Below are positions 1-17,400 of a stretch of 40,000 nucleotides of DNA, piece after piece. This stretch comes from Trichocoleus sp. (lineage in GTDB: Bacteria; Cyanobacteriota; Cyanobacteriia; Elainellales; Elainellaceae), in assembly GCA_036702865.1 (NCBI GenBank), contig DATNQD010000053.1, forward strand, positions 1,611 to 41,610, read 5' to 3'. The position numbers were made by a program, and so were the translations under genes. The notes beneath the pieces were generated by a model, which saw only the letters and a program-made list of their open reading frames with translations, had not been told where the DNA came from and did no database searches. Each line of letters begins with the position of its first letter. The stretch's first letter is position 1.

Positions 1-383
1 AGAAAAAATATCTATCAGGAATGCGGCGTTTAGAAGAGTGGTTGTCTTTCTATGAACAGCGCTGTGTTTTCTGCAAGTTGAAAGTGATTAGTCAGGATAA
101 TCAAAATATTGTGGACGGCGCACATATCAAGCCGTTTTCTGAATTTCGGGACGATCGCTTTGATAATGGCATTTCTCTCTGCAAGAACCATCATTGGGCA
201 TTTGATCACGGTTGGTTTGGCATCGATGACAGCTACAGGATTGTTGTACCCGACGATCGATTCTATGAAGAGACTCCAACGGATACAAAGTCAATCCGAG
301 ATTTTCATGGAGAACGAATCTTAATGCCAACTCAACTGGAGTATCAACCGAGAACTGATGCTCTGAAATGGCACCGCAACTAA
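1..383 (+). CDS. HNH nuclease, 3' portion (gene start lies upstream of the window)
   Basis: The frame is open from nt 3 to the TAA at 381-383 with no upstream stop, so the ATG at 21 is probably internal. The translation contains CVFCKL ... DGAHIKPF ... NGISLCKNHHWAFDHGWF. That is a Cys pair plus the His/Asn/His beta-beta-alpha-metal core, as in HNH_2-type (PF13391-like) nucleases that often form the C-terminus of restriction-type enzymes. Confidence 0.7.
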   Translation, partial: KKYLSGMRRLEEWLSFYEQRCVFCKLKVISQDNQNIVDGAHIKPFSEFRDDRFDNGISLCKNHHWAFDHGWFGIDDSYRIVVPDDRFYEETPTDTKSIRDFHGERILMPTQLEYQPRTDALKWHRN

Positions 384-732
384 AGATTGCCGCGTGATCT
401 GCTGTTGTATTTGGGTGAAAGGGCGATCGCACACCATATCCTCATAACTGACCTGCGTGTGATGCTCAGATCTTGCAAGAGAAGCTTCCAGAAGAGGCGA
501 TCGTATGGATTAGATGGAACTGTCACCAGCAAAGAAGGCCGTCTAACGACTCAAATTAGCGGCAGCAAATACCCTCAAACTTAGCATCAGTAGCTTCGGC
601 TGTCCGCTGCATTGAATGGTTAGACATTATCAACCAAGAGATGAGAGTCAGGATCAGAACAACCGGGAATCTCTTACCAGCATAAAATAATCGTCAAGTA
701 AAGGCACAACTCCGAATGCCATACAAATGTAT

Positions 733-738
733 TATAAT
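733..738 (+). promoter_or_regulatory. candidate -10 box (TATAAT) upstream of the TcmP-like gene
   Basis: Perfect TATAAT lies 41 nt upstream of the ATG at 779, inside a 395-bp intergenic region. There is no convincing -35 hexamer at 17-18 bp spacing. Confidence 0.2.
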
Positions 739-778
739 AGTACATTTAGAAGTTCTAGCCATGTGGTGAAATCCAATT

Positions 779-2026
779 ATGAGTCGAGCTGAGTGGAGCG
801 CTGATGGTAGTACCCTGCCAGTTGTTGATCCTCATACTAAAGCTAAACACAAAATATTAGAGGAATACATTGAGAACCTTGTTATAACTCTGTATGGAAA
901 AGGTAGATATGGTGTGACAAATTTTACTTTCATAGATGCATTCTGCGGTGGTGGAATGTATGACGATCCTGGAATGCAGCAAAAATGGGAGGGCTCCCCT
1001 CTAAGAATTATCAAAGCTGTTCAAAAAGGATATGAAAGATCAAAAAGAAAATATCCTCTCAACGTAAAATACATATTCATGGACAGCAAGAAAGCTCATC
1101 TAGACTGTCTCAAGAATTATTCTTTGCCAGCAGCCGGACTTGAAAAAATTGCAGCTTCTAATAGTTGTATGTTTGAGCATGGAAATTTTGAAGATCTTAT
1201 AGATTGGCTTGTTTTTACTGTTGGAAATCATAAAGGGCATTCCTTGTTTCTACTTGATCCATTTGGATGGACACAAGTATCCATGTCAAGCATAAGAAAA
1301 ATCAATAGCTTATCAGGATCAGAAATAATTTATACATACATGATTGATTATATTGCTAGATTTATCGAACTTCGTAACGATTCACAGTTTAATAATTTTC
1401 AAAATATTTTAGAGGCAGATGGTTATTACTTGCATGCAGATCCCAGTAAGATAGAAACTTTTGGCGAACAATGCTATCTGCGAGATCAGTCTATGTTACT
1501 GTTCAGGGAGCGAGGAAATGCAAAATATGTTTTCACATTCTCGTTGATTCCGAGAGGTAATTATAGAGTCTTGTACTATTTAATGCACATGTCATCAAAT
1601 TTGACTGCACTTGAAGTAGTTAAAGAAAGTTTTTGGAAAGAGAACACTTTGGATTATGAATACTGTTTTGAGGTTTATGGACATGGCTTTAGAAGCTCAG
1701 ATTATTATCAAGAAGGTCAACTAGAGTTACAGTTTGACATTAATAAAGGAAGTAGTGAGTTCTGTATTGATAAGCTTGATAGAGATGTTGGAAAACTAAT
1801 TGAAGAAAATAGAGAAGGTATTAGATTTAGAGATATATCTAATCAAACAATGGAGAAAAATCCAGCCAACAGAAACCACTACACCAAGTACCTAAACAGA
1901 CGTAGAGATGCAGCTGAAATTGAGGTTATGCGAAAAGGTGAGGTTTTAACTAATAACAAAATAATTTTCCAGCGAGGAGACATTATCCGGCCTACGCAAT
2001 ACAAACAACTTTTCTTTAATCTTTGA
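779..2026 (+). CDS. tcmP: TcmP-like protein (three-Cys-motif partner protein), Rossmann/methyltransferase-like fold suspected
   Basis: 415-aa ORF starting at ATG 779. N-terminal DPHTKAKHKILEEYIENL is followed by FIDAFCGGG (929-955, an FxGxG glycine loop) and LLDPFGW (DPFGW at 1256-1270, a DPP-like motif). This layout, directly upstream of a three-Cys radical SAM gene, matches my memory of the TIGR04474 TcmP family. Sampled 60-nt lines are only 25-28% GC. Confidence 0.55.
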   Translation: MSRAEWSADGSTLPVVDPHTKAKHKILEEYIENLVITLYGKGRYGVTNFTFIDAFCGGGMYDDPGMQQKWEGSPLRIIKAVQKGYERSKRKYPLNVKYIFMDSKKAHLDCLKNYSLPAAGLEKIAASNSCMFEHGNFEDLIDWLVFTVGNHKGHSLFLLDPFGWTQVSMSSIRKINSLSGSEIIYTYMIDYIARFIELRNDSQFNNFQNILEADGYYLHADPSKIETFGEQCYLRDQSMLLFRERGNAKYVFTFSLIPRGNYRVLYYLMHMSSNLTALEVVKESFWKENTLDYEYCFEVYGHGFRSSDYYQEGQLELQFDINKGSSEFCIDKLDRDVGKLIEENREGIRFRDISNQTMEKNPANRNHYTKYLNRRRDAAEIEVMRKGEVLTNNKIIFQRGDIIRPTQYKQLFFNL

Positions 2027-2070
2027 CTTTGAAGAATGTAAAGACAGCGAGGATATGAGGTTGATGAATT

Positions 2071-3087
2071 ATGTCAGTGCAAGGTGTAGAAACTATTTTA
2101 AATCCCTTACAAAAAAGCGCTTTGAATAAAAAAAGCTTGTGCGACTATGTTGTGAATGTTGCTTCAGGTTGTCTACATGGATGTACTTTTTGCTATGTCC
2201 CATCCACTCCAGCAATACGAACTAGACAATCTGATTTAATTGAGCAAGGCGTACCTGATCCACAGATGGATTGGGGACAATATCTTTTTGTGCGTGAAGA
2301 AGTACCCATTAAATTACGCGATAAGTTAAGCCGCCAACGTTCATGGCATGAAACACCTTCCGGTAGAGGTGTGGTGTTGTTGTGTTCAGGTACTGATCCT
2401 TACCAAAATAAGACAGTAGCAACAGTTACTCGGAAAACTGTTCAGGTCCTTCTAGAGTATGGGAAAAGGGTTAGAATTCTAACTCGTAGTCCTTTATGGC
2501 TTAATGATCTTGACCTATTAACTCATCCCAATGTTACTGTTGGAATGAGTATTCCCTGCTTGGACGATACTTTAAGTAGACAAATTGAGCCAAAAGCACC
2601 ATTACCTAGTTCGAGGCTAAAAGCCCTATTTCAAGGGAAGGAAGCAGGATGCCGGATCTACATAGCTATGGCACCAACTCATCCTGATATGGGCTACACA
2701 GAGTTTAAGCAAGACTTGCAGATTTTCAAAAAACTAGAACCAGAAGTGATTTTTTGGGAACCAATCAATGCTCGTGGTTCTAACGGGAAAAGAATGCTAG
2801 AAGCCGGTCTTACATTTGCAAAATCTGTTATGGCTCATAAATCTTGGGCACAGTGTTTTGTAAAGCAATGGGAATCTGTTGAAAAGGCAGCAGAAGATGC
2901 AAATATTCTAGATTCACTCCATATTTGGCCAGATCGAGAGTTAGTCAATTCCGTACCGCAGTCAATACTTGAGTATTGGTGGTATCGACCTACATTGGAA
3001 CAATGGACAGGACTTAATCAATGTGCAAACTCTAATGTTCCACGTCCAAGACTATCACAAGTGTTTGAAGAGGAGTTATTGGTTTGA
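2071..3087 (+). CDS. radical SAM protein, three-Cys (CX3CX2C) type, SPL/COG1533-like
   Basis: 338-aa ORF with GAGG about 10 nt upstream of the ATG. VNVASGCLHGCTFCYVPS gives the CX3CX2C cluster motif at 2170-2193, in the sequence context typical of spore-photoproduct-lyase-like (DNA-acting) radical SAM enzymes. It starts 44 nt after the TcmP-like gene on the same strand. Confidence 0.75.
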   Translation: MSVQGVETILNPLQKSALNKKSLCDYVVNVASGCLHGCTFCYVPSTPAIRTRQSDLIEQGVPDPQMDWGQYLFVREEVPIKLRDKLSRQRSWHETPSGRGVVLLCSGTDPYQNKTVATVTRKTVQVLLEYGKRVRILTRSPLWLNDLDLLTHPNVTVGMSIPCLDDTLSRQIEPKAPLPSSRLKALFQGKEAGCRIYIAMAPTHPDMGYTEFKQDLQIFKKLEPEVIFWEPINARGSNGKRMLEAGLTFAKSVMAHKSWAQCFVKQWESVEKAAEDANILDSLHIWPDRELVNSVPQSILEYWWYRPTLEQWTGLNQCANSNVPRPRLSQVFEEELLV

Positions 3088-3980: not shown

Positions 3981-4507
3981 CCTTGTGGAACAACAATCTT
4001 AAAGTGACCAATTCAACAACCTATTATAGTCCAAAGCGATCGCTTAAATACCGATTCTGTCGTTGGGGCGATCGGGCGCGATGAAGCTCCCGACAAGCTA
4101 TTATTGTCCAAAAGTTCCACCTACAAGCATTAACGCTACATTGAGTACCACCTTGGCAGAGCAAAGCCTGAAATATCTGCTACCACTATAATACAGACCA
4201 TCGCGATCGAACTGCTCAAGCTGATTTGGGGTTGAAACAGCCAAATAGCCGTCTCATAACTAATACTTATAGGGTAGCTAGAACGAGTAGTACAGTAGGT
4301 TGTCTTGTTTAAGGGATGGTCTTCAGTTCACTTCTACCTAAACTATCTGCCCGAAAGGTGTTGGACGCAAACCGTTGACTTCGAAGTTAGTAGGCCGCTG
4401 CAAGTGTAATCGTCTCAGTATTTAACAAGCTGATGACCTTAGCTCTCGTAAAGCCTTAAAATTGTTTAGCCTTAGTTCAGCTAAGGAATTCCAACACCTC
4501 AGCTCTG

Positions 4508-5668
4508 ATGGCAGTTAGTATCCTCACAAACTCTTGCAAGAGTAAAATCCAGATGGACATTGCACTCTTAACCGCTTTCCTGGCTCCCTTTCTGCCTTTT
4601 TTGATGAAATTTGGAGAGAAAGCTTCTGAAAAGGCTGGAGAAAAGTTTGGAGAAAGTGCTTGGACCAAAGCTATGGGTATCTGGTCAAAGTTGCATCCTA
4701 AATTGGAGGCTAAGGATGACGCGCGAATTGCAGCAGAGCAAGTCGCCACGAAACCGGAAAGTGAAGCTCGCAAAGCAGTTTTTCAAGAGGAGCTAGACAC
4801 ACTGCTGAAGGAAAATCCAGATTTAGCAAAAGAGATCGCCAGAATTTTGCAGGAAGATGCTCCCGATGGTACTCCTGGCAATCAGGTTATTCAAAATGTA
4901 ACAGGCGGTCAAAACCAGGTTTTTAACATCTCAGGTAGTACCATTACCAATCTCACCGGAGCTGGTGATATTCATTATCAAGAAGCTGCCCATCAGCCAC
5001 CTATTCCCACTAAAGATGTCAAGGACATCAAGGAGACTGGAGCGATCAAAACAATCTTAGTTTTGGCAGCAAATCCTCGGGGAACTACACAGTTACGATT
5101 GGGAGAAGAGGTGCGATCGCTGCGAAGGGGGCTAGAACGTTCTCAGTATCGCGATCGATTTATGCTGATGGAGCGTTGGGCAGCAACGGCCATAGATATG
5201 CGGCGGGCACTGCTCGATTGCCAACCCCAGATTGTTCACTTCTCTGGGCATGGAGTTGGAATTGAAAATTCGGGTGATGAGCCATCATCTACTCGAAAAT
5301 TTACAGTTATTCCAGATCCTAAGACAGAACCGGAAGGATTGATGTTTGAGGATGAAACTGGAGAACCCAAGCTAGTCTCTGGAGAGGCAATCGCTAATTT
5401 GTTCGCATTGTTCAGCAATCAAGTCGAATGTGTGGTGTTGAATGCCTGCTACTCGGAAGTACAAGCGAGGGCGATCGCGCAGCACATTTCTTATGTAATT
5501 GGTATGAAACGGGCAATTGGGGATAAAGCGGCGATCGAGTTCGCGATCGGGTTTTATGATGCGTTGTTGGCAGGGCGATCGGTGGAGTTTGCCTACAACC
5601 TGGGTTGCAGCGCGATTCAGATGGCTGGGATTCCAGAGCGGTTGACCCCTGTATTGGTACAAAGGTAA
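4508..5668 (+). CDS. CHAT-domain (caspase-like) protease with helical N-terminal adaptor-like region
   Basis: 386-aa ORF; an alternative start is ATG 4553 (MDIALLTAFLAPF...). The C-terminal half reads ILVLAANP...LRLGEEVR...IVHFSGHG (His codon 5249-5251) ... VVLNACYS (Cys codon 5447-5449). This is the caspase/CHAT His-Cys dyad in its usual context. No signal peptide. Confidence 0.8.
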   Translation: MAVSILTNSCKSKIQMDIALLTAFLAPFLPFLMKFGEKASEKAGEKFGESAWTKAMGIWSKLHPKLEAKDDARIAAEQVATKPESEARKAVFQEELDTLLKENPDLAKEIARILQEDAPDGTPGNQVIQNVTGGQNQVFNISGSTITNLTGAGDIHYQEAAHQPPIPTKDVKDIKETGAIKTILVLAANPRGTTQLRLGEEVRSLRRGLERSQYRDRFMLMERWAATAIDMRRALLDCQPQIVHFSGHGVGIENSGDEPSSTRKFTVIPDPKTEPEGLMFEDETGEPKLVSGEAIANLFALFSNQVECVVLNACYSEVQARAIAQHISYVIGMKRAIGDKAAIEFAIGFYDALLAGRSVEFAYNLGCSAIQMAGIPERLTPVLVQR

Positions 5669-5719
5669 TTTCTATATACTCACGGGTAGGTTAGCAAGTA
5701 CTTCTTCGATTGATTGATG

Positions 5720-7645
5720 TTAGTCTCTCAAAAAACCAATTGGGCTAATAATTTTAACTAAGGATTTGAGAGAATCAACAATTGGATTCTTTAAGGGAAG
5801 TTCTTGACTTTGTGGTCCAGGATCTATTGTCCTTTCTATTTGATCGAAATCCTGTCCATAAAAATCCAGACTAATGAGAAAGGCGGGAACATTAATAGCA
5901 GTACAAAACTGGAAACTTGAATCGATACTCTCTTTAACAACAGCTTGAAGATTACCTGTCTCAATCTTACCTTTTGCTTTGCTTCTCATCTGGTTGAGTA
6001 GAGCATCAGCATATGCTTTGAGTTTAGGCTTATCCTCCGCATAATAAACTTTGACTTGTGTAGACCGTTTTAGAGCCTCTGGATAAAGATTTATGCGAAT
6101 CTCAACTGCGATGTCCCCACTTTGATAATCTTCTCGTTGCATAAGCGCTTTAAGACCGTTCTCATAAGAGCCCGCCGTCTCAAGTACATTTTCCATCGGC
6201 AAGGATTTTTCCGAGGACTCCCAAACCTTTTCCAACAAGAACTTTGCAAGCTCCACCTCTTGATTAACCTGTTCCGGGCTTGGAACTTCCCCAATAGGTC
6301 TCTGATACCCAGAAAGAAGATAGATCTTCCCCTTTACAGGCACATCACCTGTTTTGACTACATAGCGATTATTAGCCAACAAATCCTGTGCGACTTCGTT
6401 TTCCTTATTCTTTTCTAAAAAGTCAACGATCGCACACATCCGTGTTCCTAAGTTTCCTTGAATCTCAAACTCTTGACCAACAGCCAATTTTGCAATTGTA
6501 GAATGATGCAAACCAACAAGTTGCCACTTTTCATTACAGATGGCTGACCCAGAAGAACAGAAAGATACATCAGTTTCATAAGCAAGAAATTTTTGATAGA
6601 CTTCCTGCACAGAGTTATTAAAGAGAACGATTCTCTTTCGTCCGCCGCCAGGGTGCTGAATAACGAAAGCAGGTTCACCCCGGAGACCTACTCCTGAAAT
6701 CCTAGGCCGATCATTTTCCAATAGCGCCTCTTGTTTAATGGGTGGAGCAATCAATGTTGGATCAGAAAACATTGGAAACCAACCAAAATTATCACCTGCT
6801 TCAGGAAAGCCTAATCCATCTTCCTCATAATTTTCATTGGGCTTAACCTTGACTATGGTGAAGTCGAGAAACTTATCACTGATACAAGCTCTTGAATCAA
6901 GTTCATATACGATAGGAGTAACCTCTTCTCCTAAAGGATTTATCTCATATCTGAAATAGGCTAAAAATTTGTTGATTTCTTTTTTGTTCTTATCATTAAA
7001 GACATGAAAGTTGGTTGTTAAGTAGTTTTTACCCACTAGAAAGCCAGTCGCAAAAGGAATATAGATAGTAGCTTCGCGCAGCCTTTCTTTTTCATTAGGC
7101 TGTTCACTGATTCTTTTCCGCAGGTCGCTTAGTTCTTCCTTAACAACAGGATCTTCTAATACGTCAGCAACCTTTTTGTTTGGGTTGCTTTTGTCTATCC
7201 AGCGATCCAGCGATCCCCCTGGTTCTTTTATGGACAGCAATTTAAGCTTCCGCGATAACCATCGCAGAATTTCAGGAATGTCTTTTGTGCGGTGATCTTT
7301 AATTGTATCGATTAGCTCTTCTAGTTGAAGCCCACGTACTAGCAAACACACAGCGTCGCTACAGCGTAGCCCACGTCCTAAAAATTCAGAGAAGAGATAG
7401 TCAGGATCACCAACCGACAATAAACCTGAAGAGAGCGCTTTGTCTAATCTGTCCAGCCTTGATTCTATAATCTTGAGTAATTCTGGTTCTTCAAGCTGCA
7501 ATGGCTCTGAAAACCCTTGAAATTCTGTTACCTCAGGAAAACCATCAGTAGCTATTTCACATAATTCTGAACCTGGAAGCGCCTGGCAAATTTGCTCTTT
7601 AGTCGCCCAATTGCCAGAAGTCTTCAAAGTAAAGATTTCCACCAT
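5720..7645 (-). CDS. trypsin-like (S1/Trypsin_2-type) serine protease with unknown N- and C-terminal domains
   Basis: I prefer the ATG at 7645 (MVEIFTLK...), which has GGAG at 7654-7657, 8 nt upstream. The track's 7684 start is a TTG. Numbering from 7684, the catalytic triad candidates are His227 in TTNFHVF (7004-7006), Asp274 in LDFTIVKV (6863-6865) and Ser378 in FCSSGSAI (6551-6553). Their spacing is chymotrypsin-like. No signal peptide. Confidence 0.75.
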   Translation of the reverse strand: MVEIFTLKTSGNWATKEQICQALPGSELCEIATDGFPEVTEFQGFSEPLQLEEPELLKIIESRLDRLDKALSSGLLSVGDPDYLFSEFLGRGLRCSDAVCLLVRGLQLEELIDTIKDHRTKDIPEILRWLSRKLKLLSIKEPGGSLDRWIDKSNPNKKVADVLEDPVVKEELSDLRKRISEQPNEKERLREATIYIPFATGFLVGKNYLTTNFHVFNDKNKKEINKFLAYFRYEINPLGEEVTPIVYELDSRACISDKFLDFTIVKVKPNENYEEDGLGFPEAGDNFGWFPMFSDPTLIAPPIKQEALLENDRPRISGVGLRGEPAFVIQHPGGGRKRIVLFNNSVQEVYQKFLAYETDVSFCSSGSAICNEKWQLVGLHHSTIAKLAVGQEFEIQGNLGTRMCAIVDFLEKNKENEVAQDLLANNRYVVKTGDVPVKGKIYLLSGYQRPIGEVPSPEQVNQEVELAKFLLEKVWESSEKSLPMENVLETAGSYENGLKALMQREDYQSGDIAVEIRINLYPEALKRSTQVKVYYAEDKPKLKAYADALLNQMRSKAKGKIETGNLQAVVKESIDSSFQFCTAINVPAFLISLDFYGQDFDQIERTIDPGPQSQELPLKNPIVDSLKSLVKIISPIGFLRD

Positions 7646-7715
7646 ATTCGAGTCTCCTAAATTAATATAGCAATGTGAATCCAAGTGCTATACAGAATAT
7701 CTAAAGGCGTTGTGA

Positions 7716-9830
7716 ATGAATCAAACTAGACAAAGAGATTATAAACGAAAAGCTTACGTAGGGGAGATTCAGCAACCTTCTTTAAAGGATATTGATTTAA
7801 GATATTTAAAGTTCAACAAATCTATACTTTACAGCAGCTTCCTAACATTTTTTATATTTTGCTTAATAGTCGCGGCTGGCTATTTGAACGGTTTGTTAGG
7901 TGGAAATATCAGCAAACTTTTATTCTACTCTCAGCAATTGGTTAAGGGGATTTGGTTCACATTATGCATAGTGCTAGTGATTGGTGCATGGCAAGTTCGG
8001 GCAAAGCATCTGAAATTTGCTCAAGGGATTTGGACGGCAGGAGTAATGACTGTACTGTGTTCTGTACTAACTTGGCTCATTTCTGCAACTATACCCAGCA
8101 TATTTAAATCAGATTCTTTTTGGGTAAGTGCTACTTTACCCCCATTCTTTCTCGGTGGATATATCCTCGCATTTCTTCTAACAAGCTTTTGTCTAGCCAG
8201 TTTTAGTTACAGCATGGAACCCGCAGTTTATCAACGGCTTAAATACCATTTTTCAATTTTTGTGATAGTTTCTTCGGTTTTGGTTGCTTATTGGATTGGA
8301 GGCAATTCTCCCATTGAACTAGATGTCACAAAACGCTACTTTGGGCTAGTAAAGGTTACCTCTGGTTTGTTGGGTGGTCTACTAATTTTGCAACCAAGTC
8401 TTGCTTTTGTTGAGTCTAGAAAAGCAAAAGCTGACCTCAGCTTCTTACGATTATGGGCTATTGCCTATAACTCTTTAGGTAGTACTTCCTTTCTGAACTT
8501 AGATCTCAGTGAAGCCGATTTTACGGGTGCGAATGTTGCGAATACCGACTTTCGGGCTGGTAAGTTCTACAGGACTTGTTTAAAAGATGTGAAAGGCTTA
8601 GATCGAGCAAGACTTGATAATCGCTATTTCGATATCGATCAGCCGCAAGTTCAAATGCTTCTTACACAAGGCTGCTGTGATGAAAAAGACTTTTTTAGGG
8701 TCAACTTGCAAGGAGCGTATCTACAAAGTGCATCCGATCTGCGAGAGTTTAACTTCACAGATGCAAGGCTAGATGGAGCCGACCTACAGAAAGCCGATTT
8801 ACGAGGTAGCACTTTATTAAGGACTCAACTCCCTGAAGCAGATTTAGGAAGAGCAGACTTAAGGCGCGTAAATTTCACAGATGCAAATCTAACAGCAGCA
8901 ACTTTGCGAGGAGCCGATCTACGGGATTGTATTCTAGTTCGTGCTCAAGTTGCTCGTGCAGACTTTACGGGTGCCGATCTAACGGGCGTTTGCATTGAGG
9001 ACTGGAGTGCCAGCAGTAAGACTAACTTTACCAATGTTCGCTGTGACTACATCTACCGCCGCTATCAAGACGGGCTGTCTACAGACCGCTATCCAGTCGA
9101 TCGCAACTTTGAACCTGATGAGTTTGCTTCGCTATTTCAGCAACCTGAGAATCAGTTGGAGCTTGTATTCAAAGGAGAATTTGACTATACAGCTCTCAGT
9201 TTGACCTTTGATAAGCTGCAAACGGATAAACCAGACCTGAAATTAAAGCTTCAGGGAATTGAGCAACGGCAGGACTTATGGGTTGTGAAGGTGATCAGCG
9301 ATGATCCTGCAACTGTAGAAAGCCGGATTCAGGAGATTCAGGATACTGTTTATCAAGGATACGAAATCACCACAACTCGATTAGAAAGTAATCCACTCAT
9401 TCGCAGAATTATTAGCGATGTTGCTAACATCAGAAAAACGCAGGAAGAAACGGTCGAAGAAGTCAAGCAACTTACTAAACGCATTGGAAGCAACTTCTAC
9501 TTCTTAGGAGGAACCATTACAAACGTTACTGGGGCTGGTGAAATTAACTACACTGAAGCTAGCAATCAAGTTCGTAGTCTTGTCTCAAGTGATAGCCATC
9601 AAACTCAAGTTGCAAATACCTTACTGAATCGACTGAGATCTAGCAACGTCGCAACAACAACTACTGAACAAGTAGAGCTTATCCAATTTGTAATTTTTGA
9701 AGAAACACAGCGAGATCCAAGATTCAGGCAATCACTATTGCAACAAGAACAGCAAATTTTGGCATCTCTTCCTGAAAGCTCGATCTCGTTAGCTATCCGA
9801 GGTGCGATCGCACAGCTCAATCAAAGCTAA
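7716..9830 (+). CDS. multi-pass membrane pentapeptide-repeat protein with C-terminal soluble domain
   Basis: 704 aa. About six hydrophobic helices lie in residues 40-230. Pentapeptide (A[DN]LxX) repeats such as GADLQKADLRGSTLLRTQLPEADLGRADLRRVNFTDANLTAATLRGADLRD span about 8487-9005. The C-terminal ~270 aa include GGTITNVTGAGEINYTEA (9507-9560). The gene is divergent from the protease gene, with a 70-bp spacer. Confidence 0.85.
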   Translation: MNQTRQRDYKRKAYVGEIQQPSLKDIDLRYLKFNKSILYSSFLTFFIFCLIVAAGYLNGLLGGNISKLLFYSQQLVKGIWFTLCIVLVIGAWQVRAKHLKFAQGIWTAGVMTVLCSVLTWLISATIPSIFKSDSFWVSATLPPFFLGGYILAFLLTSFCLASFSYSMEPAVYQRLKYHFSIFVIVSSVLVAYWIGGNSPIELDVTKRYFGLVKVTSGLLGGLLILQPSLAFVESRKAKADLSFLRLWAIAYNSLGSTSFLNLDLSEADFTGANVANTDFRAGKFYRTCLKDVKGLDRARLDNRYFDIDQPQVQMLLTQGCCDEKDFFRVNLQGAYLQSASDLREFNFTDARLDGADLQKADLRGSTLLRTQLPEADLGRADLRRVNFTDANLTAATLRGADLRDCILVRAQVARADFTGADLTGVCIEDWSASSKTNFTNVRCDYIYRRYQDGLSTDRYPVDRNFEPDEFASLFQQPENQLELVFKGEFDYTALSLTFDKLQTDKPDLKLKLQGIEQRQDLWVVKVISDDPATVESRIQEIQDTVYQGYEITTTRLESNPLIRRIISDVANIRKTQEETVEEVKQLTKRIGSNFYFLGGTITNVTGAGEINYTEASNQVRSLVSSDSHQTQVANTLLNRLRSSNVATTTTEQVELIQFVIFEETQRDPRFRQSLLQQEQQILASLPESSISLAIRGAIAQLNQS

Positions 9831-10106
9831 GTGAACATTGATTTTCCTGTTATTCGACATTCTGTTCCTTACCCTGCTCCACCATTCTCTTGATGACGAA
9901 TTGAAGGTCTCACTTCACCTCAATCTCTTCGCTCACGAGTAATTCTTGAAATTTTTGGTACTGGTAGAGCTAATTTCCTTCTTCGGATTGAGCAATTTCA
10001 ACTATGAAAATTTTTCCAGTTCAAATGAACTACTATATTGACAACTTAGCTAGAATTTAGCCTTAACAAATTAAAACGCTACATCTATAGTCTTTCTAAA
10101 TACTGA

Positions 10107-10135
10107 TTCCATATCTAGCGTGATGAGGGTATAAG
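10107..10135 (+). promoter_or_regulatory. weak sigma70-type promoter candidate for the que-dpdA operon
   Basis: TTCCAT (10107-10112), a 17-nt spacer, then TATAAG (10130-10135), about 48 nt upstream of the queD ATG. Both hexamers are imperfect. Confidence 0.2.
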
Positions 10136-10182
10136 ATAACGAATCTGTCTACCTCTAAATCTGCCTAAGCTGAAGTAGCAAT

Positions 10183-10572
10183 ATGCGCAAGTGGAAGCTC
10201 ACCACGGAATTTACCTTTGATGCCGCTCACTATATCCGGGACTGCGACGGTCCCTGTGGGCGAATGCATGGACATACCTACCGGGTGCGGATTGAGGCAG
10301 CCTCTAGCCAGCTTCATGCCTCGGAGTACTGTCCTCATCCCGTTATGGTTGCTGATTTCCGCACGCTCCGTTGGGCAAAGCAAGACCTACTCAAAGGAGG
10401 GCTTGACCATTCGGTTCTAAACGAAGTTCTACCCGAAGGCTACGAAACCACTGCCGAGATGATCGCCCAACATATCTACGACAAGACGAAAAAGCAACTG
10501 CCCCCGGATGTGAAGCTAAAGGTTGCTGTGTCCGAAACGCCCAACTCTTGGGCGGAGTATGAGGACGACTAG
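10183..10572 (+). CDS. queD: 6-carboxy-5,6,7,8-tetrahydropterin synthase
   Basis: 129 aa. FTFDAAHYI ... CGRMHGHTYRVRIE ... LDHSVLNE is the PTPS/QueD zinc and catalytic-site pattern. It sits next to queE and queC. Confidence 0.9.
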   Translation: MRKWKLTTEFTFDAAHYIRDCDGPCGRMHGHTYRVRIEAASSQLHASEYCPHPVMVADFRTLRWAKQDLLKGGLDHSVLNEVLPEGYETTAEMIAQHIYDKTKKQLPPDVKLKVAVSETPNSWAEYEDD

Positions 10573-10583
10573 GAGTAACCGTT

Positions 10584-11222
10584 ATGACAAGCCTGATCCC
10601 CACTACCTCAACTTCTAAAACAGCCTCGGCAGCCTTGCCAGTTGTGGAAACCTTTCACTCAGTTCAAGGTGAGGGAGTTTGGGCAGGCACGAATGCCTTC
10701 TTTATTCGGCTAGCCGGATGTGACGTGGGATGTCCTTGGTGCGACACTAAGCATTCCTGGAATGCACGTCGCCATCCTCAACGCCTCACTACCGACCTGA
10801 TTACAGAAACTAAAGCGGCAAATCCGGCGATCGTTGTCATTACAGGTGGTGAACCCCTGCTGCATGACCTTTCCTCCCTCAGCAACGGGTTGAGAGTCGC
10901 AGAGCTGCGAGTCCATTTAGAGACCTCTGGAGCACACCCCTTCAGTGGCAGCTTCGACTGGATTACCTTCTCCCCTAAGCGATCCAAGCCACCTCACGAA
11001 AGCATTTATTCACGGGTAAGTGAACTGAAGGTCGTAGTTTCTGAACAGGCTGATCTGTCCTGGGCAGAGGATCAGGCAACCACAATCCCCACGGATGCAG
11101 TCCGGCTCCTCCAACCAGAATGGGGTACACCTGATAGCTACTCGCTCATCTTTGATTATGTTCTCAGCCATCCAGAATGGCGGCTCAGCTTACAGACCCA
11201 TAAATTTACTAATATTCGATGA
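10584..11222 (+). CDS. queE: 7-carboxy-7-deazaguanine synthase (radical SAM)
   Basis: 212 aa, with AGGAG at 10571-10575. ETFHSVQGEGVWAGTNAFFIRLAGCDVGCPWCDTKHSW has the QueE-type cluster motif at 10719-10742, followed by ITGGEPLL. Confidence 0.9.
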   Translation: MTSLIPTTSTSKTASAALPVVETFHSVQGEGVWAGTNAFFIRLAGCDVGCPWCDTKHSWNARRHPQRLTTDLITETKAANPAIVVITGGEPLLHDLSSLSNGLRVAELRVHLETSGAHPFSGSFDWITFSPKRSKPPHESIYSRVSELKVVVSEQADLSWAEDQATTIPTDAVRLLQPEWGTPDSYSLIFDYVLSHPEWRLSLQTHKFTNIR

Positions 11223-11234
11223 GGGGCGAAAACT

Positions 11235-11330
11235 ATGGCTCAGGTTGATTTATCCCCTCGTGAACTTTCCATCATCCTCGCGTCGTTGGAGTATTGGGCT
11301 GACAACCATGACGATGACGATCTCCTATGA
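11235..11330 (+). CDS. small acidic ORF, part A (31 aa); possibly the N-terminal half of a frameshifted ~77-aa protein
   Basis: The ATG at 11235 lies 8 nt after GAGGGG. Translation: MAQVDLSPRELSIILASLEYWADNHDDDDLL*. It fills the queE-queC gap and overlaps part B by 23 nt in another frame. Confidence 0.25.
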   Translation: MAQVDLSPRELSIILASLEYWADNHDDDDLL

Positions 11331-11466
11331 CCAAATGAGCGAGGACATGGAGCAGGAAACGTTTGGGGAAGCGGGACAACCTCGCAGTGATGAGATTGGT
11401 CAACTCTGCTGCAAGCTCTATCAGTTTGATAGCGGTGTCCAACCCATTTGGCGATCGCCAAGCTAA
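11308..11466 (+). CDS. small acidic ORF, part B (52 aa)
   Basis: This ORF is in frame +1 relative to part A. Translation: MTMTISYDQMSEDMEQETFGEAGQPRSDEIGQLCCKLYQFDSGVQPIWRSPS*. The track ORF 11095-11466 is this same frame, but its 5' part overlaps queE and is unlikely to be coding. Confidence 0.3.
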   Translation: MTMTISYDQMSEDMEQETFGEAGQPRSDEIGQLCCKLYQFDSGVQPIWRSPS

Positions 11467-11490
11467 TTACCCTTTACCGTGAGATGAACT

Positions 11491-12213
11491 ATGAGTGCTC
11501 CAAAAGCCGTTGTTTTATTGTCTGGTGGTCTGGATTCATCAACCTCTGCTGCTCAAGCGATCGCTGATGGTTACGAGTTGATTGCTCTATCGCTCCATTA
11601 TGGACAAAGGCACGATCGCGAACTCATTGCTGCTAAGCGGGTGGCTGAGCATTTGGGGATCAAGGAACACTTTGTGGTGGATGTGAATTTGGCGCAGTGG
11701 GGTGGTTCTGCTTTGACTGACCAGGCTGTGGATGTGCCGACTGACGGTGTGAAGCCTGGTGTGATTCCCATTACCTATGTGCCGGGACGGAATACGGTCT
11801 TTCTGGCGATCGCTCTCTCCTTGGCGGAAGCCAAAGGAGCAGAAGCAATTTACTTGGGGATCAATGCCGTAGACTATTCTGGCTATCCTGACTGCCGACC
11901 AGAGTACCTAGAAGCTGTCCAGCACCTTGCAACCCTCTCCTCTAAAGCTGGTTTGGAAGGGCATGCCCCCAAGCTTGTGGCTCCACTTGTTATGGATTCC
12001 AAAGTAGATATTGTGCATCGTGCGTTACAACTGGACGTTCCTATTCACCTCACCTGGTCTTGCTATCAAGGCGAGGATAAACCCTGCGGGTTGTGCGACT
12101 CTTGCCGGATTCGCGATCGTGCTCTGATTGACGCAGGTAGACCCGATCTGGCAACGTTAGTAGGGCGAGAATTGTACGAACAGGAGAACCAATGCGCTAC
12201 CCCCGTGTCTTAA
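11491..12213 (+). CDS. queC: 7-cyano-7-deazaguanine (preQ0) synthase
   Basis: 240 aa. It has [13 protein letters not shown] (PP-loop), TYVPGRN, and the C-terminal Zn cluster [20 protein letters not shown]. Confidence 0.92.
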
Positions 12214-14270
12214 TCATTACATCGTGTACCGGGGAAAAGCGATTTAAGCCAGAGAATCAACTCACTCAGAAAGATTTTATGCATGCTGCTCGACTCCGCA
12301 AAAGAGAAAAGCAGCTTTCTGAATTTATGGCTCCGGCAGGAGAAATGTATACCGGGATGCAGCACATCCAGTTGATGGAGGGTGTGCGAACTCTATGCAA
12401 AACTTTAGAGAAGCCTGTAATTGATGTAGTTATCATCTCAGCAGGCTATGGGTTGATTTCTGAAGATCATGTAATTGCACCCTACGAAGTCACTTTCAAC
12501 ACAATGAAAGGGCATGAGATAGATGCCTGGGCAAAACGATTAAAAATACATCAATCACTTGAAAAAGCAATTTCTGACTATGATTTGATTTTTGTTCTAT
12601 TAGGTGAAAAGTATTTAAGGGCAATTTCGTTACCACTCACTCTTTACGAGGAACAAGCTTGGATATTTCTAGCTCCAGGAAGCTGTTCTAACTTAATTCA
12701 AACATTAAATCCCCAAGCTTTTGTCCTGCCTCTCTCTAACGCTGAGGCAAAAAAGTACGGCTTTGGTTCAGTAGGGTTAAAGGGCTTTTTATTTAAGCAG
12801 TTTGCCTTGGTTGCTTCGCAGCAACCTGAGTTGTTTGAACAAATCCATCAAACCCCTTGTCATTTTCAAGATGTTATTGATAGAACTACTCAACTCGAAC
12901 TCGATTTAGGCTTGCCTAAATCAGTAGCAAAAAATAAATTTAAGCAAGTTACGAAGAAAACTAACAGGGACGAATTCGTCCCTATTCCTCATTTGCCGCC
13001 TGCGCCGAACATTCATTTGGGTGTGCAATACTTTATCCCGGAATGGGATGATCGTGTTGACCCAGACTATAACTTCTTAACAGATTCTTTTGGTTCTCCC
13101 GACCGTGATCCTTATGCTGATGATGTGTATGCTCATGAATTGTTTCTTCGTGCAAACTTTGGTCCAAACTATGATGGTGTTCTAATTTCTAAAGTTGTTA
13201 TCGATGAAAGTCAAGCACGACGAGCCAAAGTAGAAGCTCAAGGTGTACATAAGTTCATCCGCTTTCACGGCAAAATCATGGGAGATTGTGGAGCGTTTGG
13301 CTATGTAGAGGACGACGAGCCACCTTACAATACGGATGAAATTCTCGATTACTATGAACGTCTTGGATTTAACTATGGTGTTAGCATTGATCACCTAATA
13401 GTTGGTCCCTTTGCTGAACCTGGAGTTCGTGAGAAGCGCTACAATCTAACGCGCAAGAATGCAGAAGAGTTTTTAAAGAAATATCAGCAACGGGATTTTC
13501 AGTTTACCCCAATCGGCGTTGCTCAAGGGTGGGATCCAGAGTCCTACGCCAAGGCAGTCAAAGAGCTAATTGAAATGGGCTACGACTATATTGCTTTGGG
13601 TGGATTAGCCCGTGCCCAAAACCGTGAAATTCTGCCGATTCTGGAAGCGATTCATCCTCATCTAGTTCCTACGGTGCGAATGCATTTATTTGGAGTAGCG
13701 AGAATTAATTCAATTTCCGCCTTTCGGCATTTGGGTGTAACAAGTTGCGATTCTGCTAGTCCATTGCGGCAAGCTTGGCTTGGAGCAACTGCTAATTACT
13801 ACACACCGTCAGATAAGCGATACGCAGCTATCCGGGTTCCACCTGTAGACCATAAAGGTGGCTTACGGATTAAACGCCTGTTGGAAGCAAAGGTTGCAGA
13901 CTTTGAGACCCTACAGCAACTTGAAAAAGACGCTTTGCAATCGCTGCGAGAATTTGATGCTGGCAGGCTAGACCTGGAATCAACTTTACAAACGATCCTT
14001 GCTTACGATGAACTGCTGGAACTACCGAAAGATGGTAAAGCTGAACCAGAAGCCCAAGCTAAGCGACGAGCCAAACATGAGGTCTTGTATCGAGACGTTC
14101 TGGAAGACCAACCCTGGAAAACTTGCAACTGCCCCATCTGCCAAAAAATAGGAATTGAGGTAATTATTTTCCGCAACAATAACCGTAACCGACGACGGGG
14201 GTTTCACAATACTTATGTGTTTTATAAAAGATTTCAAGAGTTGCTAAAAATACCTACGAAGCAATCATAG
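12192..14270 (+). CDS. dpdA: DpdA-like DNA-guanine transglycosylase (TGT superfamily) fused to an N-terminal DUF6884-like domain
   Basis: 692 aa, with AGGAGAA at 12180-12186. The start overlaps the queC 3' end by 22 nt. The N-terminal ~215 aa read [53 protein letters not shown]. The C-terminal ~420 aa read MGDCGAFGY (Asp codon 13284-13286), [26 protein letters not shown]. The TGT Zn site is C645-x-C647-x2-C650...H672 (14124-14207). Confidence 0.7.
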
Positions 14271-14445
14271 AGGCAGGCTTATAGAACAATTGAATTACTA
14301 AGGGAGGGCAAAGCTTTCTGCTTGTCCGTGAAGTGTGTGTGAACAAAAAGACGACTCACCCGTCTTAGAGTGTTGAATTGCTTCAAGACGGGCACACTAG
14401 AGATAATACACTTCCGCCATCAGAATACTCCCTGTCTGGCAGGCC

Positions 14446-17400
14446 ATGCACTACCCAACCCCCCAAGTTCATCCTCTCTACATCCAGAGCGGTTCCCTGG
14501 TTCGCTCTCGCCTCAGCAGTTTAGGGGTTGGGAAAGTCTTATCTACTTCTGCGTCTGAAGCGTTAGTTGAGTATTTCGTCTCTATTGGAGAGCGAATCCA
14601 GAAAAAATCATCTTTTAATTCCTTAGAAAGAATTATTCTTCAGCGACATACTCGCTGCTATGTGTGGTTAGAGGAACATGAGGTCTGGCAGTCTGGCAGA
14701 ATCGCAACTTGGCACGATGACGATCGCCGCTACGAAGTCCACCTACCAGACAAGGGTGTGTACTACGCGACTGAGGCAGAAATTTACGTTCGCTGCGATC
14801 GTCCGATCGAAGATCCTACAGAAGTATTGATTATGAAGGGGCAAGAAACCCCCTTCTTCCATAGCCGACGGTCTGCTTTAGTTCGCTGCCTAATTGAGCA
14901 ACGGGCAGTCAGTCATGGCATGCCTAGTCTTCTTTCATCCAATGTTGATCTGTATCCTCACCAGGTGGAAGTTGTGCGGCGAGTTTTAGAAGATCCAATC
15001 CAGCGCTATCTTTTGGCAGATGAGGTTGGATTAGGCAAAACGATTGAAGCTGGTGTGATTCTTCGGCAGTATCTGCTGGATGAACCTGACGGGAAGGCAT
15101 TAATCGTTGTCCCTCGTCCCTTACTTAGGCAATGGAAACAAGAGCTGGAAGCTAAATTTCATTTAACTGATCAGGTAGAACTGCTTACAGTTGAAGATCT
15201 TCCTGCTTACCAATACACCACCCCGCCTGGCTTTCTGATTGTGGATGAAGCCCAGCATATTGCTGCTTTGGCAGAATCTACTGCCTTACAACAGCGGGGG
15301 TATTTTACAGTTATCCAACGACTCGCTCACCAAGTCGATTGCCTTCTGCTTCTTTCTGCAACACCTGCCCTCAACCATGAGCGGACTTTTTTGGCAATGT
15401 TACATCTCCTCGATCCAATTACTTACCGTTTGGAGGACATCATAGGCTTCAAGGAGCGGGTTCACCTGCGGCAAGACATTGGGCGAATACTACTCTCCTT
15501 TAAGGAAAGCGCTCCATCGTTTGTATTGAGAGCAAGTGTTGGAAAATTAAGAAGCCTTTTTGCCCAAGATCCTCGTCTGTTAACTTTAATCGAACAACTT
15601 GAGCATTCTCTAAGCTCACCAGAGGCTAATCCTACTGAACGAGGACGAGTGATCCGAGCGATCCGTACCCACATCAGCGATACCTACCGACTTCATCGCC
15701 GTATGTTGCGAAATCGTCGCGATACTGTGGAGGATGTTTTGTTGGATCAATCCAAAGCAAAGCTTCAGGTAGAGTATGACCTGGATGAACGATCGCCTAC
15801 GGTTCAGGAGTATTTAGATGAATGGCGTATCCGTGCGATCGCAGCCGCCGCCGGAGAGGATGACCCCTACTACCATCAACTTCGCCAGGTATTCTTGCTG
15901 CTGTTCAGTACCAGTGGAACTTGGCTAACCTTTTTAGAGTGGGTACTTTTGGCTCGACTCAATGGCGAAGTTGCCCCTGCTCTTATCAAGGAATTGGAGG
16001 CAACGTCTCTTGATTTGCTACTAAACACTCCCCAGTTTCTTGGTGAAGATGATATCCTTCAGAGTCTTCTTGACGTGATTCAGCAACCGTCTGAATATGG
16101 CGATCGCATTGAACACCTTCAGATGGTCTTGGAAGCCTGTGTCAAGAGTTCTAGACAGAAACCTGCGAAAATTGTAGTTTTCACAGGTTTTACCCACACT
16201 TGTCGGGAGTTGGTGCAGCGTCTATCTAGCACGTTGGGTAAACGAGCGATCGCAACTTATCAAGTAGGGCAATCGCTTGATGAGATAGAGAAGAACACAA
16301 ATCAGTTTAAGGATGATCCAAGTTGTTGTGTTTTGGTTTGCGACACTTCGGGAGAAGAAGGGCATAACTTGCAATTCGCCGACTGGATCATCCATTTCGA
16401 TCTACCTTTATCACCAAATCGAATTGAACAGCGAAACGGGCGATTAAGTCGGATCGGGCGAAATCGTTTACTCCAGTTTGTTGTTTTTGCTGGAGCTGAT
16501 ACAAGTGACAGCCTTCATGGGGCTTGGTATGAAGTCCTCAACAGTGGTTTCAAGATTTTTCAAGAATCAATCGCCAGTCTTCAATTTCTTGTGGACAGAA
16601 AGATACCTGATTTAGAAACTGCCTTATTTCAACTAGGAGCATACGGATTATCTGAGGCAATTCAATTAATTGGTGGTGAGATTACTGCTGAAAAAATCAG
16701 GATTGATGAACAAAACGTACTCGATGAAATTGATTCTTTAGAAGAGGGTGCAACTCAGTATTTTAAAGCCTTAGATGATTATGACGCTCGTCATCAGGAT
16801 ATCCAAGAGGCTGTGGAAGCTTGGCTTTGCCAAACCTTGAAGTTTAGGAGGTATGAAGACGATGACGCACCCGAAATCATTCGGTATAAGCGTTCTTCTG
16901 AAACTTTGATTCCAGCAGATGACTTAATTAAATACTTTAGAGGTTATCTCAATCAGCCCGGAACTTACCAGCGTCGTAAGGCTTTGCAACACGAAGAAGT
17001 GGTTCTTCATCGGATTGGTGAGGGGTTGATTGAGACTCTAAGTGAATATATTCACTGGGATGATCGAGGTCAGGCATTTGCCTTATGGCGACATGACGAA
17101 ACCTGGCCAGCAGAGGAAGGGATGGAATGGGTAGGTTTTCGCTTCGACTATATTGTTGAAGCCAATTTAACCCTTGTTAGTCAGGTATTTGAGCAGCATG
17201 GTGCGAATTATGCTAGCCAAGTTGCATTGAAGCGCCGTATGGATGCCATCTTTCCACCTATCGTCGAAACTATCTTTCTTGATACTCGTATGAATGTTGT
17301 GAAGGATCAATATCTTCTGAACATTCTGCAACAGCCTTACTCCAAAAAGCGCCAACCAACCCATGACTATAGCCTTAGCAAAGGCAGAGTGCCAATTATC

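Follow-up and report, generated by a model that had tools for sequence, protein, structure and literature searches.

A membrane pentapeptide-repeat protein, a divergent trypsin-like protein and a swappable caspase-fold effector as a candidate NTPase-less, motif-coupled module of filamentous cyanobacteria

We describe a locus of three adjacent genes (positions 4508–9830) in a 40,000-nucleotide stretch of DNA from Trichocoleus sp. (GenBank assembly GCA_036702865.1, contig DATNQD010000053.1, positions 1,611 to 41,610 of the forward strand), hereafter called the window. The genes encode a protein with a CHAT (caspase-fold) protease domain (gene 1), a trypsin-like protein (gene 2) and a membrane pentapeptide-repeat protein (PRP, gene 3). 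On balance, we lean towards reading these genes as a single module of filamentous cyanobacteria that lacks a nucleoside triphosphatase (NTPase), is coupled through a short shared motif and has a role in conflict or cell death. The PRP and the divergently encoded trypsin-like protein form the constant core of the module, and the third gene is swappable. The organizing feature is a motif of approximately 22 residues, overlooked in an initial annotation made from the DNA letters alone, which is common to the PRP and the CHAT protein. The presence of the same motif on a PRP and a caspase-like protease suggests a death or defense switch without the usual NTPase sensor.

The initial annotation had described the three open reading frames (ORFs) as encoding a CHAT, a trypsin-like and a transmembrane (TM) pentapeptide protein, in agreement with the ORF list and our Pfam searches. 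Genes 1 and 2 are convergent with a gap of 51 bp and genes 2 and 3 divergent with a gap of 70 bp, as it had reported, and the catalytic Cys and Ser codons that it had placed at 5447 and 6551 are intact. The genes, the region between the divergent pair and the two copies of the motif are located as follows:

ORF 4508–5668, likely gene 4553–5668, plus strand: effector gene (gene 1), 386 aa, or 371 aa from Met16; matched by Pfam CHAT and PADLOC 'chat'
4922–4987, plus strand: shared motif, effector copy FNISGSTITNLTGAGDIHYQEA, gene 1 residues 139–160 (386-aa numbering)
5720–7645 (from ATG; TTG at 7684), minus strand: trypsin-like protease gene of the module (gene 2), 641 aa, or 654 aa from the TTG; Trypsin_2
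7646–7715, no strand assigned: 70-bp spacer that separates the divergent trypsin and PRP genes
7716–9830, plus strand: hub gene (gene 3), 6-TM membrane PRP, 704 aa; Pfam Pentapeptide
9495–9560, plus strand: shared motif, hub copy FYFLGGTITNVTGAGEINYTEA, gene 3 residues 594–615

To assess the conservation of the locus, 185,579 species genomes were scanned with a profile of the trypsin-like protein, which yielded 13 loci, and further loci were reached by an independent look-up of six PRP homologs. As the PRP family is far larger (740 clusters of homologs), the latter were sampled independently of the trypsin profile; the trypsin protein family comprises 31 clusters, the named ones all cyanobacterial except for one distant match in Rhodococcus. 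A PRP ortholog divergently adjoins the trypsin gene in 13/13 loci found with the trypsin profile, and a CHAT gene is present on the other side of the trypsin gene in 12 of them. Conversely, all six independently retrieved PRP homologs have a divergent Trypsin_2 gene, and the caspase-fold partner in these loci is an adjacent CHAT gene (four loci), a CHAT domain fused to the PRP (one) or a C14-type protease (one). Overall, the PRP and trypsin genes adjoin in 20 of 20 further complete loci, all from filamentous cyanobacteria, with a caspase-fold partner in 19, and the divergent arrangement of trypsin and PRP genes is kept in every locus. The 13 loci include Microcoleus, Myxacorys, Calothrix, Nostoc, Scytonema, Sphaerothrix, Phormidesmis and Alkalinema; these and the other named source genera, including those of annotated homologs, we take to be filamentous.

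Since all further complete loci show this gene set again, chance adjacency of the three genes is ruled out. Clustering of the flanking ORFs revealed no family common to the loci beyond close relatives, and the unit therefore is autonomous and apparently mobile. The gene-neighborhood check that the initial annotation had called for thus comes out in its favor, with the three genes co-occurring as one unit across filamentous cyanobacteria. The composition of this unit is asymmetric. The trypsin protein is constant, and the effector position is usually taken by CHAT, which in other loci that we read gives way to a C14 caspase or to another trypsin; TIR-containing proteins that bear the same motif were found as well, in a gene context that could not be read. 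In view of this asymmetry, the CHAT protein would be the effector, and the trypsin protein would act upstream of or beside the hub. A cascade of two proteases, activator plus executioner, as put forward in the initial annotation, is not directly supported by these data.

The shared motif has the consensus F-x-I-S-G-S-T-I-T-N-L-x-G-S-G-x-I-x-Y-x-E-A and is rich in Gly, Asn and Ser. The effector and hub copies of the window have 14 of 22 residues in common, and BLASTP of gene 1 against gene 3 aligns the motif stretch with E=1e-6; in a six-frame translation of the window the motif occurs twice only, in gene 1 and gene 3. Within the PRP family it is the best-conserved feature outside the solenoid: 117 of 120 homologs carry it, always approximately 110 aa before the C-terminus, and F594, G598, I601, N603, G606, I610, Y612 and A615 are invariant in 43 homologs. 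The position in the partner protease is more variable. In most partners the motif is N-terminal (e.g., MSEPTSKTFNISGSTINNLAG...), in those of Calothrix, Nostoc and Scytonema (L005, L006, and L020) it is C-terminal, and in the window it is internal. In Coleofasciculus (L021), where a C14-type caspase-like protease replaces CHAT, it lies behind the protease domain. In the window, the two copies use the same codon at only 7 of their 14 identical positions and DNA identity is 70%; selection at the level of the protein thus appears to preserve the similarity, and gene conversion, recent conversion included, is ruled out as its origin in the window.

A motif scan revealed two copies per locus, one in each protein, in the window and at least 16 further loci. 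The loci that deviate from this pattern are informative. No copy is present in the fusion loci L017 and L018; in the 959-aa PRP-CHAT fusion P0165, the PRP sequence ...EEVKQL is joined straight to the CHAT core VKKILILAANP, with deletion of both motif copies. The Alkalinema locus (L013) has no effector gene, and its PRP is degenerate at the motif position. Presence and absence of the motif thus co-vary perfectly between the two carriers, and in the fusion a covalent link substitutes for the motif.

A search of 1.84 billion representative proteins with a motif profile gave 61 matches at E<=1e-3, most of which are PRP-family members or fragments. The remainder includes proteins that combine the motif with Peptidase_C14 (P0314 and P0318, by Pfam), with a degenerate C14 or CHAT domain and TIR_2 (P0301, P0306, and P0312; a CHAT-motif-TIR protein lies on L022, a contig too short to show its neighbors), or with Trypsin_2 and a coiled coil (P0322). 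On its short contig P0322 is encoded convergently to a module-type trypsin gene, i.e., in the arrangement of the triad with the effector swapped; a small gene without assigned family is located upstream of a motif-tagged trypsin in L023 (1–330). Three small proteins end in the motif (P0291, P0304, and P0316), and one of these, P0291 (167 aa), looks like the N-terminal helical domain of gene 1 ending in a PRP-type motif, without CHAT. In P0319 (501 aa), a C-terminal module of the PRP type (coiled coil, motif, and helical bundle) follows an unrelated, repeat-containing soluble N-terminal region, from which the hub tail itself would be a transferable module. The repetitive proteins P0277, P0309, and P0317 were regarded as false positives. 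No carrier with a NACHT, NB-ARC or AAA domain was present among the 61 classified matches.

The domains of the three proteins, as delimited by Pfam, profile alignments, Foldseek and AlphaFold2 (AF2) models with their predicted local distance difference test (pLDDT) scores, map to the window as follows:

4553–4882, plus strand: N-terminal helical domain of gene 1, opening with the hydrophobic helix MDIALLTAFLAPFLPFLMKFG (alignment A3)
4883–4921, plus strand: half-motif NQVIQNVTGGQNQV, rich in G/N/Q and related to a segment (TQIIQTVTGNQNQVIGQ...) found in the N-helical-CHAT family at large
5039–5662, plus strand: CHAT (caspase-fold) protease domain; His248 codon 5249–5251, Cys314 codon 5447–5449
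5732–6358, minus strand: predicted catalytically dead Amidase_3-fold domain (pseudo N-acetylmuramoyl-L-alanine amidase), gene 2 residues ~430–640 (AF2, Foldseek, profile A6)
6461–7063, minus strand: S1 protease core with His214, Asp261 and Ser365; Ser codon 6551–6553
7076–7645, minus strand: family-specific N-domain with the signature [DE]PD[FY]L..FL..G.R...AVC
7824–8414, plus strand: six TM helices of the PRP (aa 37–233; AF2 37–69, 75–97, 101–125, 133–166, 169–195, 203–233)
8478–9095, plus strand: pentapeptide-repeat beta-solenoid (aa ~255–460), predicted cytoplasmic (Pfam, AF2)
9153–9440, plus strand: small alpha/beta domain (480–530), long helix (538–575) and disordered K/R-rich linker (571–590) (AF2)
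9561–9824, plus strand: C-terminal helical bundle after the motif (AF2 612–703, pLDDT 76–88), kept in homologs

The PRP matches Pfam Pentapeptide (PF00805) in five stretches (E=1.1e-25, 89 bits), and its AF2 model, based on 43 homologs, has a mean pLDDT of 85. Lys and Arg residues number 9 in the N-terminal tail and 4 after the sixth TM helix, versus 0–1 in the odd-numbered loops; with six TM helices, this charge bias predicts that both termini, the solenoid and the motif are cytoplasmic. Foldseek retrieved only PRP structures with this model, and nothing for the TM and C-terminal parts. The non-repeat tail spans residues 460–704, about 245 aa rather than the 270 aa initially given for the C-terminal domain, and within it the motif is modeled as three short strands (594–611). 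Two shortened PRPs were observed, both next to an intact CHAT partner: that of L010 (7844–9745) stops just past a divergent motif and has no helical bundle, and that of L003 (58–1677) ends before the motif, possibly as a result of a frameshift or pseudogenization.

The trypsin-like protein matches Trypsin_2 (PF13365; E=8.7e-15, 56.1 bits versus a cutoff of 27.6) and has a catalytic triad (His214, Asp261, and Ser365) that is invariant in 17 homologs. Profile comparison of the protease core with the PDB places it nearest to S1B enzymes (SplB, 3e-14; exfoliative toxins; V8). The AF2 model based on the 17 homologs has a mean pLDDT of 69, with a poorly predicted second protease barrel and an N-domain of low confidence at residues 1–95 and good confidence at residues 100–190. 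The initial annotation had regarded the domains on either side of the protease as unknown. For the N-domain this stands: it matches no known family, although L84, G92, R94, V99 and C100 are invariant and its signature is readable in variants of 397–1258 aa. In the 1258-aa variant the protease core, at 33% identity, is the only alignable part.

For the C-terminal domain a fold could be assigned. It is modeled with a pLDDT of 80–94 and resembles the Amidase_3 amidases LytH, CwlD, Nostoc AmiC2 and CwlV in Foldseek (E 7e-6 to 8e-5, TM-scores 0.52–0.60); profile A6 matches 4rn7 (E=1.3e-6), and the L005 homolog exceeds the cutoff of Pfam Amidase_3 (PF01520) with 34.2 bits. In the alignment with 4rn7, in which the zinc ligands and the catalytic Glu are placed as is usual for the Amidase_3 family, SIHLN corresponds to EIRIN, with Arg instead of His, and IECGF to ISLDF, with Ser instead of Glu, and the first Glu alone is kept. 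Replacement of a zinc-binding His and of the catalytic Glu argues that the domain is a pseudo-enzyme, and it probably is a binding module rather than an enzyme. The trypsin protein thus has the fold of these amidases at residues ~430–640, but differs from them in the loss of the zinc His and catalytic Glu, the absence of a signal peptide and the fusion of the domain to a protease. Across the loci, the N-domain and protease core persist and the C-terminus varies: it is Amidase_3-like, consists of PG_binding_1, PG_binding_3 and Laminin_G_3 or of several Laminin_G_3 domains, or is missing (397 and 445 aa). Neither signal peptides nor TM segments could be seen at the N-terminus of any of the 17 homologs or of the longer and shorter variants.

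Gene 1 matches Pfam CHAT (PF12770; E=2.3e-9, 37.6 bits versus a cutoff of 24) and the PADLOC 'chat' model (1.9e-17). The catalytic dyad is formed by His248 in FSGHG and Cys314 in NACYS, with HFSGHG and LNACYS kept in homologs. Most orthologous modules have a protein of 220–265 aa that consists of the motif and CHAT, and in 12 loci the start of the CHAT partner corresponds to residue ~123–138 of the window protein. The latter adds a helical domain of ~110 aa, which is an addition specific to one family and lacking in most orthologous modules, a point that the initial annotation had missed. In this domain P12, P15 and W44 are invariant (alignment A3, 25 homologs). Its hydrophobic helix MDIALLTAFLAPFLPFLMKFG is not a Sec-type signal; the description of the CHAT protein as leaderless therefore is correct as far as secretion is concerned, but its N-terminus is a conserved hydrophobic helix and not an innocuous end.

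No relative of the N-helical domain was found in Pfam, the PDB or NCBIfam. A Bell/Bab-like identity was considered, for which the profile search against the PDB gave spurious coiled-coil matches only (E of at least 0.14). PF20701, listed for the homolog P0063 in a precomputed table, was not reproduced in our own Pfam scan. The domain belongs to an N-helical-CHAT family of more than 100 clusters (P0039–P0151), whose members start with MDIALLTAFLxPFLPFL and continue with the amyloid-like, G/N/Q-rich segment TQIIQTVTGNQNQVIGQVSGGQVFGNVTG; among the linkers of 120 CHAT homologs, this segment is the usual one of the family. The succession of N-helical domain, TQIIQTVTGNQNQVIGQVSGGQVFGNVTG and CHAT corresponds to a Bell-plus-BASS-like layout (BASS, bacterial amyloid signaling sequence) fused to a protease. 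The CHAT protein of the window looks like a chimera that joins the half-motif of this family to the PRP-type motif.

The Trichocoleus sp. metagenome-assembled genome contains deposited proteins 100% identical to the window proteins, of 371, 641 and 704 aa (the first two are P0032 and P0001, respectively). Because the deposited gene 1 product has 371 aa and more than 100 homologs open with MDIALL, Met16 (4553) is most likely the start of gene 1. Likewise, the length of 641 aa initially given for gene 2 corresponds to the deposited protein, which sets the start at the ATG at 7645. The gene 2 ORF reaches 13 codons further 5', where the TTG at 7684 is located; as it is the ATG with which the N-termini of homologs line up, the extension is probably not translated. 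A promoter and terminator scan of 4000–10300 showed no enrichment compared to shuffled sequences, and no strong promoter consensus was seen in the 70-bp intergenic region.

As initially annotated, the module lies between a putative modification cassette and a dpd island, which the Pfam assignments of the neighbors support. Upstream are HNH, GMT-wHTH and radical-SAM genes; the cassette of the initial annotation corresponds to positions 21–3087, which encode an HNH endonuclease, a 415-aa protein with a weak GMT-like winged helix-turn-helix match (below the Pfam cutoff) and, as a third protein, a radical-SAM protein (match just below the cutoff). Downstream, genes for a PTPS (QueD-like) protein, a radical-SAM protein, QueC, a protein with TGT and DUF6884, and helicases are read as a dpd-like set. 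This putative 7-deazaguanine DNA-modification island (10183–20288 and beyond) directly follows the module, the radical-SAM protein being QueE-like, the TGT-DUF6884 protein DpdA-like and the helicases of the SNF2 and DEAD types, and large ORFs run on to ~31 kb. The dpd genes flank the triad in the window only, and no other examined locus has these neighbors.

Elsewhere, the surroundings of the module include further defense-related or mobile genes in some loci, namely TIR and transposase genes (L014), Type ISP (L016) and NACHT (L019). In Microcoleus (L001, 12648–18403, and the equivalents in L002 and L003) the module is followed by extra, motif-free CHAT paralogs; L001 and L003 have two, the second of which is a CHAT-GUN4 fusion, and L002 has the first only. 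A 719-aa Peptidase_C14 protein comes after these paralogs in L001–L003, resulting in a caspase-rich island.

How might these proteins act together? In the reading we favor, the motif would be a homotypic docking or templating element that brings the effector to the tail of the hub on the cytoplasmic side of the membrane, where clustering would activate a caspase-fold or TIR effector in a manner similar to the induced proximity of caspases. The trypsin protein would be the input or activating component, a sensor and not a second executioner, and may sense a cell-wall- or invader-derived ligand through its variable C-terminus. The fusion locus retains the trypsin gene, which shows that this protein must do more than bridge PRP and CHAT. 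We speculate that it may cleave the hub or the effector, for instance in the disordered, K/R-rich stretch that immediately precedes the motif, and in the fusion at KQLRKPPTVKK before CHAT. The output would be cell death or growth arrest, brought about by proteolysis or, in the case of TIR effectors, in an NAD-dependent manner; it would serve defense or regulated death within the filament, and no NTPase would take part. A role in defense or cell death is inferred from the types of effectors, the filamentous genera and the defense or mobile neighbors in several loci. Of the proposal in the initial annotation that the membrane protein acts as sensor or scaffold, the part that stands is the hub or scaffold, in view of the motif it has in common with a caspase-like protease and of the PRP-CHAT fusion.

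The module resembles known systems in part. In BASS gene pairs, adjacent immune genes share short motifs and have 'all-in-one' fusion counterparts (bioRxiv 10.1101/2020.01.06.895854), and one pair, Bab/Agp, is an experimentally proven abortive infection system (bioRxiv 10.1101/2024.11.07.622273). Like these, the module has a short, Gly/Asn-rich and beta-prone motif that is common to adjacent gene products and terminal on most effectors, effectors that include CHAT and TIR, a motif-free 'all-in-one' fusion (P0165) and an occurrence in multicellular bacteria including cyanobacteria. It differs in its receptor, a 6-TM PRP instead of a NOD-like receptor (NLR) or TPR-GreAB-PIN protein, in the internal position of the receptor motif (residues 594–615 of 704, versus N-terminal in BASS NLRs) and in having a trypsin-like protease gene as a constant third member. 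Membership of the motif in BASS1–10 was rejected, as beyond composition it bears no resemblance to the examples of these families (supplementary table 2 of the BASS study).

A second parallel is found in NTP-dependent conflict systems coupled by effector-associated domains (EADs), in which one small adaptor occurs on a core and on swappable effectors (PMC7159879; PMC8195603). These systems have caspase-like, trypsin and TIR effectors and are enriched in filamentous cyanobacteria; pentapeptide repeats are listed among their superstructure-forming domains, and a gene for Trypco1 (trypsin-co-occurring domain 1) lies beside the module in Coleofasciculus (L021, 4021–4410). Unlike them, the module has no STAND, MoxR-vWA or GTPase core, and its adaptor is a strand motif of ~22 aa rather than a helical EAD or Death-like domain; no described EAD was matched by Pfam in the module proteins, and a keyword search of the two papers for the triad of PRP, trypsin and effector was negative. 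In its adaptor logic the module resembles BASS and EAD-coupled systems and is a member of neither, where for BASS the motif comparison concerns BASS1–10.

Filamentous cyanobacteria are rich in caspase-fold His/Cys proteases, and orthocaspase-pentapeptide fusions have been noted (PMC7475262); that work catalogs domain fusions and describes neither the gene triad nor the shared motif. Among membrane PRPs, HglK of Nostoc/Anabaena PCC 7120, which affects septa and heterocyst glycolipid deposition, likewise combines a multi-TM N-terminal region with long pentapeptide repeats in ~700–730 aa in a filamentous cyanobacterium. By its published description, however, HglK has 4 predicted TM segments and repeats from residue 501 of 727 (PMC8145042), versus 6 TM helices, repeats at 255–460 and a 245-aa motif-bearing tail in the PRP of the module, and the latter was on this basis not classified as HglK-type. 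Neither the gene set nor a description of the motif was found in our full-text literature searches, where motif fragments retrieved unrelated papers only, nor in PADLOC or NCBIfam, consistent with the initial statement that no system of this composition had been described. We rate a PRP hub with a dedicated protease as apparently unprecedented among motif- or adaptor-coupled conflict systems.

Whether the motif is a true amyloid (prion-like) signaling motif concerns the mechanism within the module and leaves the module itself unchanged. The PRP copy, on activation adopting a cross-beta or beta-solenoid form, would in that case template polymerization of the effector as in HET-s/NWD2 and Bab/Agp; we consider this possible, though clearly short of probable. 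One rung of the HET-s type is ~21–22 aa long, which equals the length of the motif, and the conserved Gly breakers and Asn, the alternating hydrophobic pattern and the three short strands predicted by AF2 in the PRP are in line with it. Its richness in G/N/S/T/I is similar to what has been reported as enriched in BASS motifs, and the features that define BASS, adjacent genes with a common motif, a mostly terminal position on the effector and an 'all-in-one' fusion, are found here too. Some effectors moreover carry a second, upstream G/N/Q-rich pseudo-repeat and the hub one copy, like HET-s and some BASS pairs, and CHAT and TIR proteins have been reported to carry BASS11. Against this, the motif does not match the BASS1–10 example sequences, the receptor is not an NLR, the PRP copy is followed by a well-predicted helical bundle, and fixed differences between effector and hub copies (position 2, N versus F/Y; position 18, H/Y versus E) suggest a defined heterotypic contact. 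Less likely still is the fuller scheme of an NTPase-free membrane signalosome, in which a protease with a dead-amidase or lectin domain would sense a ligand from the wall or an invader and trigger the PRP, which would in turn template amyloid-like polymerization of caspase, TIR or trypsin effectors via a motif not described before; such a signalosome would be the bacterial equivalent of signaling by RHIM or HET-s, independent of an NLR.

Several observations weigh against the coupled module with a role in conflict or cell death. PADLOC-DB v2 has its generic 'chat' model for gene 1 and no model for the trypsin or PRP proteins, and no known anti-phage system was recognized in this check, which the initial annotation had proposed. 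The PRP motif, internal and beside a modeled helical bundle, would fit stoichiometric docking as well as templating. Partner-specific covariation of the motif is weak, and a strong form is rejected: identity is 12.9/22 within genomes versus 12.3/22 between genomes (permutation p=0.003, uncorrected for phylogeny), driven by columns 12 and 14, to which may be added matched peculiarities such as a one-residue deletion in both copies of Microcoleus, TGAG in both copies of the window and V before Gly in both copies of L010. The genomic context is mixed, with glutamate synthase, photolyase, peroxiredoxin or heat-shock genes flanking other loci. Finally, Amidase_3, PG_binding_1 and LamG domains are typically extracytoplasmic, and their occurrence without a signal peptide leaves the location and ligand of the trypsin protein uncertain. 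These folds, and PG_binding_3, would be explained if the trypsin protein were exported and acted on the envelope, the adjacency to PRP and CHAT reflecting co-regulation without a signaling complex. We hold this to be very unlikely, given that neither signal peptide nor TM segment is seen, that the amidase domain is predicted to be dead and that the shortest variants (397 and 445 aa) keep the adjacency without any wall-binding domain. Housekeeping neighbors, peptidoglycan-related folds and named source organisms that all belong to genera regarded as filamentous would also suit regulated proteolysis in filament physiology, such as surveillance of wall or septum, with the trypsin protein reading the state of the peptidoglycan, or death of necridia for filament breakage; the effect of HglK on septal architecture adds to this (PMC8145042). 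We regard such a non-immune role as unlikely, as the flanks are not conserved and include transposase, TIR, NACHT, restriction and dpd genes in several loci, the distribution looks patchy (13 loci from scattered species of many genera), and swapping of CHAT, C14, TIR and trypsin effectors combined with a variable, sensor-like C-terminus is the pattern of conflict systems (PMC7159879). Most improbable, in our assessment, is that the triad is a fragment of an NTPase-centered (STAND/NLR or vWA-MoxR) system with the NTPase nearby or elsewhere. An NLR-like gene (AAA_35 and WD40) adjoins the PRP gene in L008, L012 and L017, a NACHT-HEAT gene lies ~2.6 kb from the module in L019, and the Trypco1 of L021 is a trypsin partner in vWA-MoxR systems (PMC7159879). 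However, no NTPase family recurs in the clustered flanks of the examined loci, where clusters are shared by close relatives only, the NLR-like genes are restricted to these three loci and lack the motif, and the protein of L012 opens directly with AAA_35; the two copies per locus and the absence of NACHT, NB-ARC and AAA domains among the 61 classified motif matches likewise speak against a hidden NTPase partner, and the initial statement that the module has no NTPase holds.

Known motif- or adaptor-coupled systems are built on NTPase switches (NLR/STAND, MoxR-vWA) or, in one case, on a TPR-PIN sensor. If the module described here indeed is coupled by its motif, it would show a plug-in effector logic (CHAT, caspase, TIR, trypsin) built on a membrane PRP and a dedicated serine protease. 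At 5.3 kb the module is compact and offers clear catalytic and motif mutants, which makes it directly testable by heterologous expression. The small catalog of candidate bacterial amyloid or adaptor motifs would gain a new short motif, and peptidoglycan-like ligands would come into view as a possible intracellular danger signal. Pentapeptide-repeat proteins, the functions of which are mostly unknown, would gain a role as signaling hubs.

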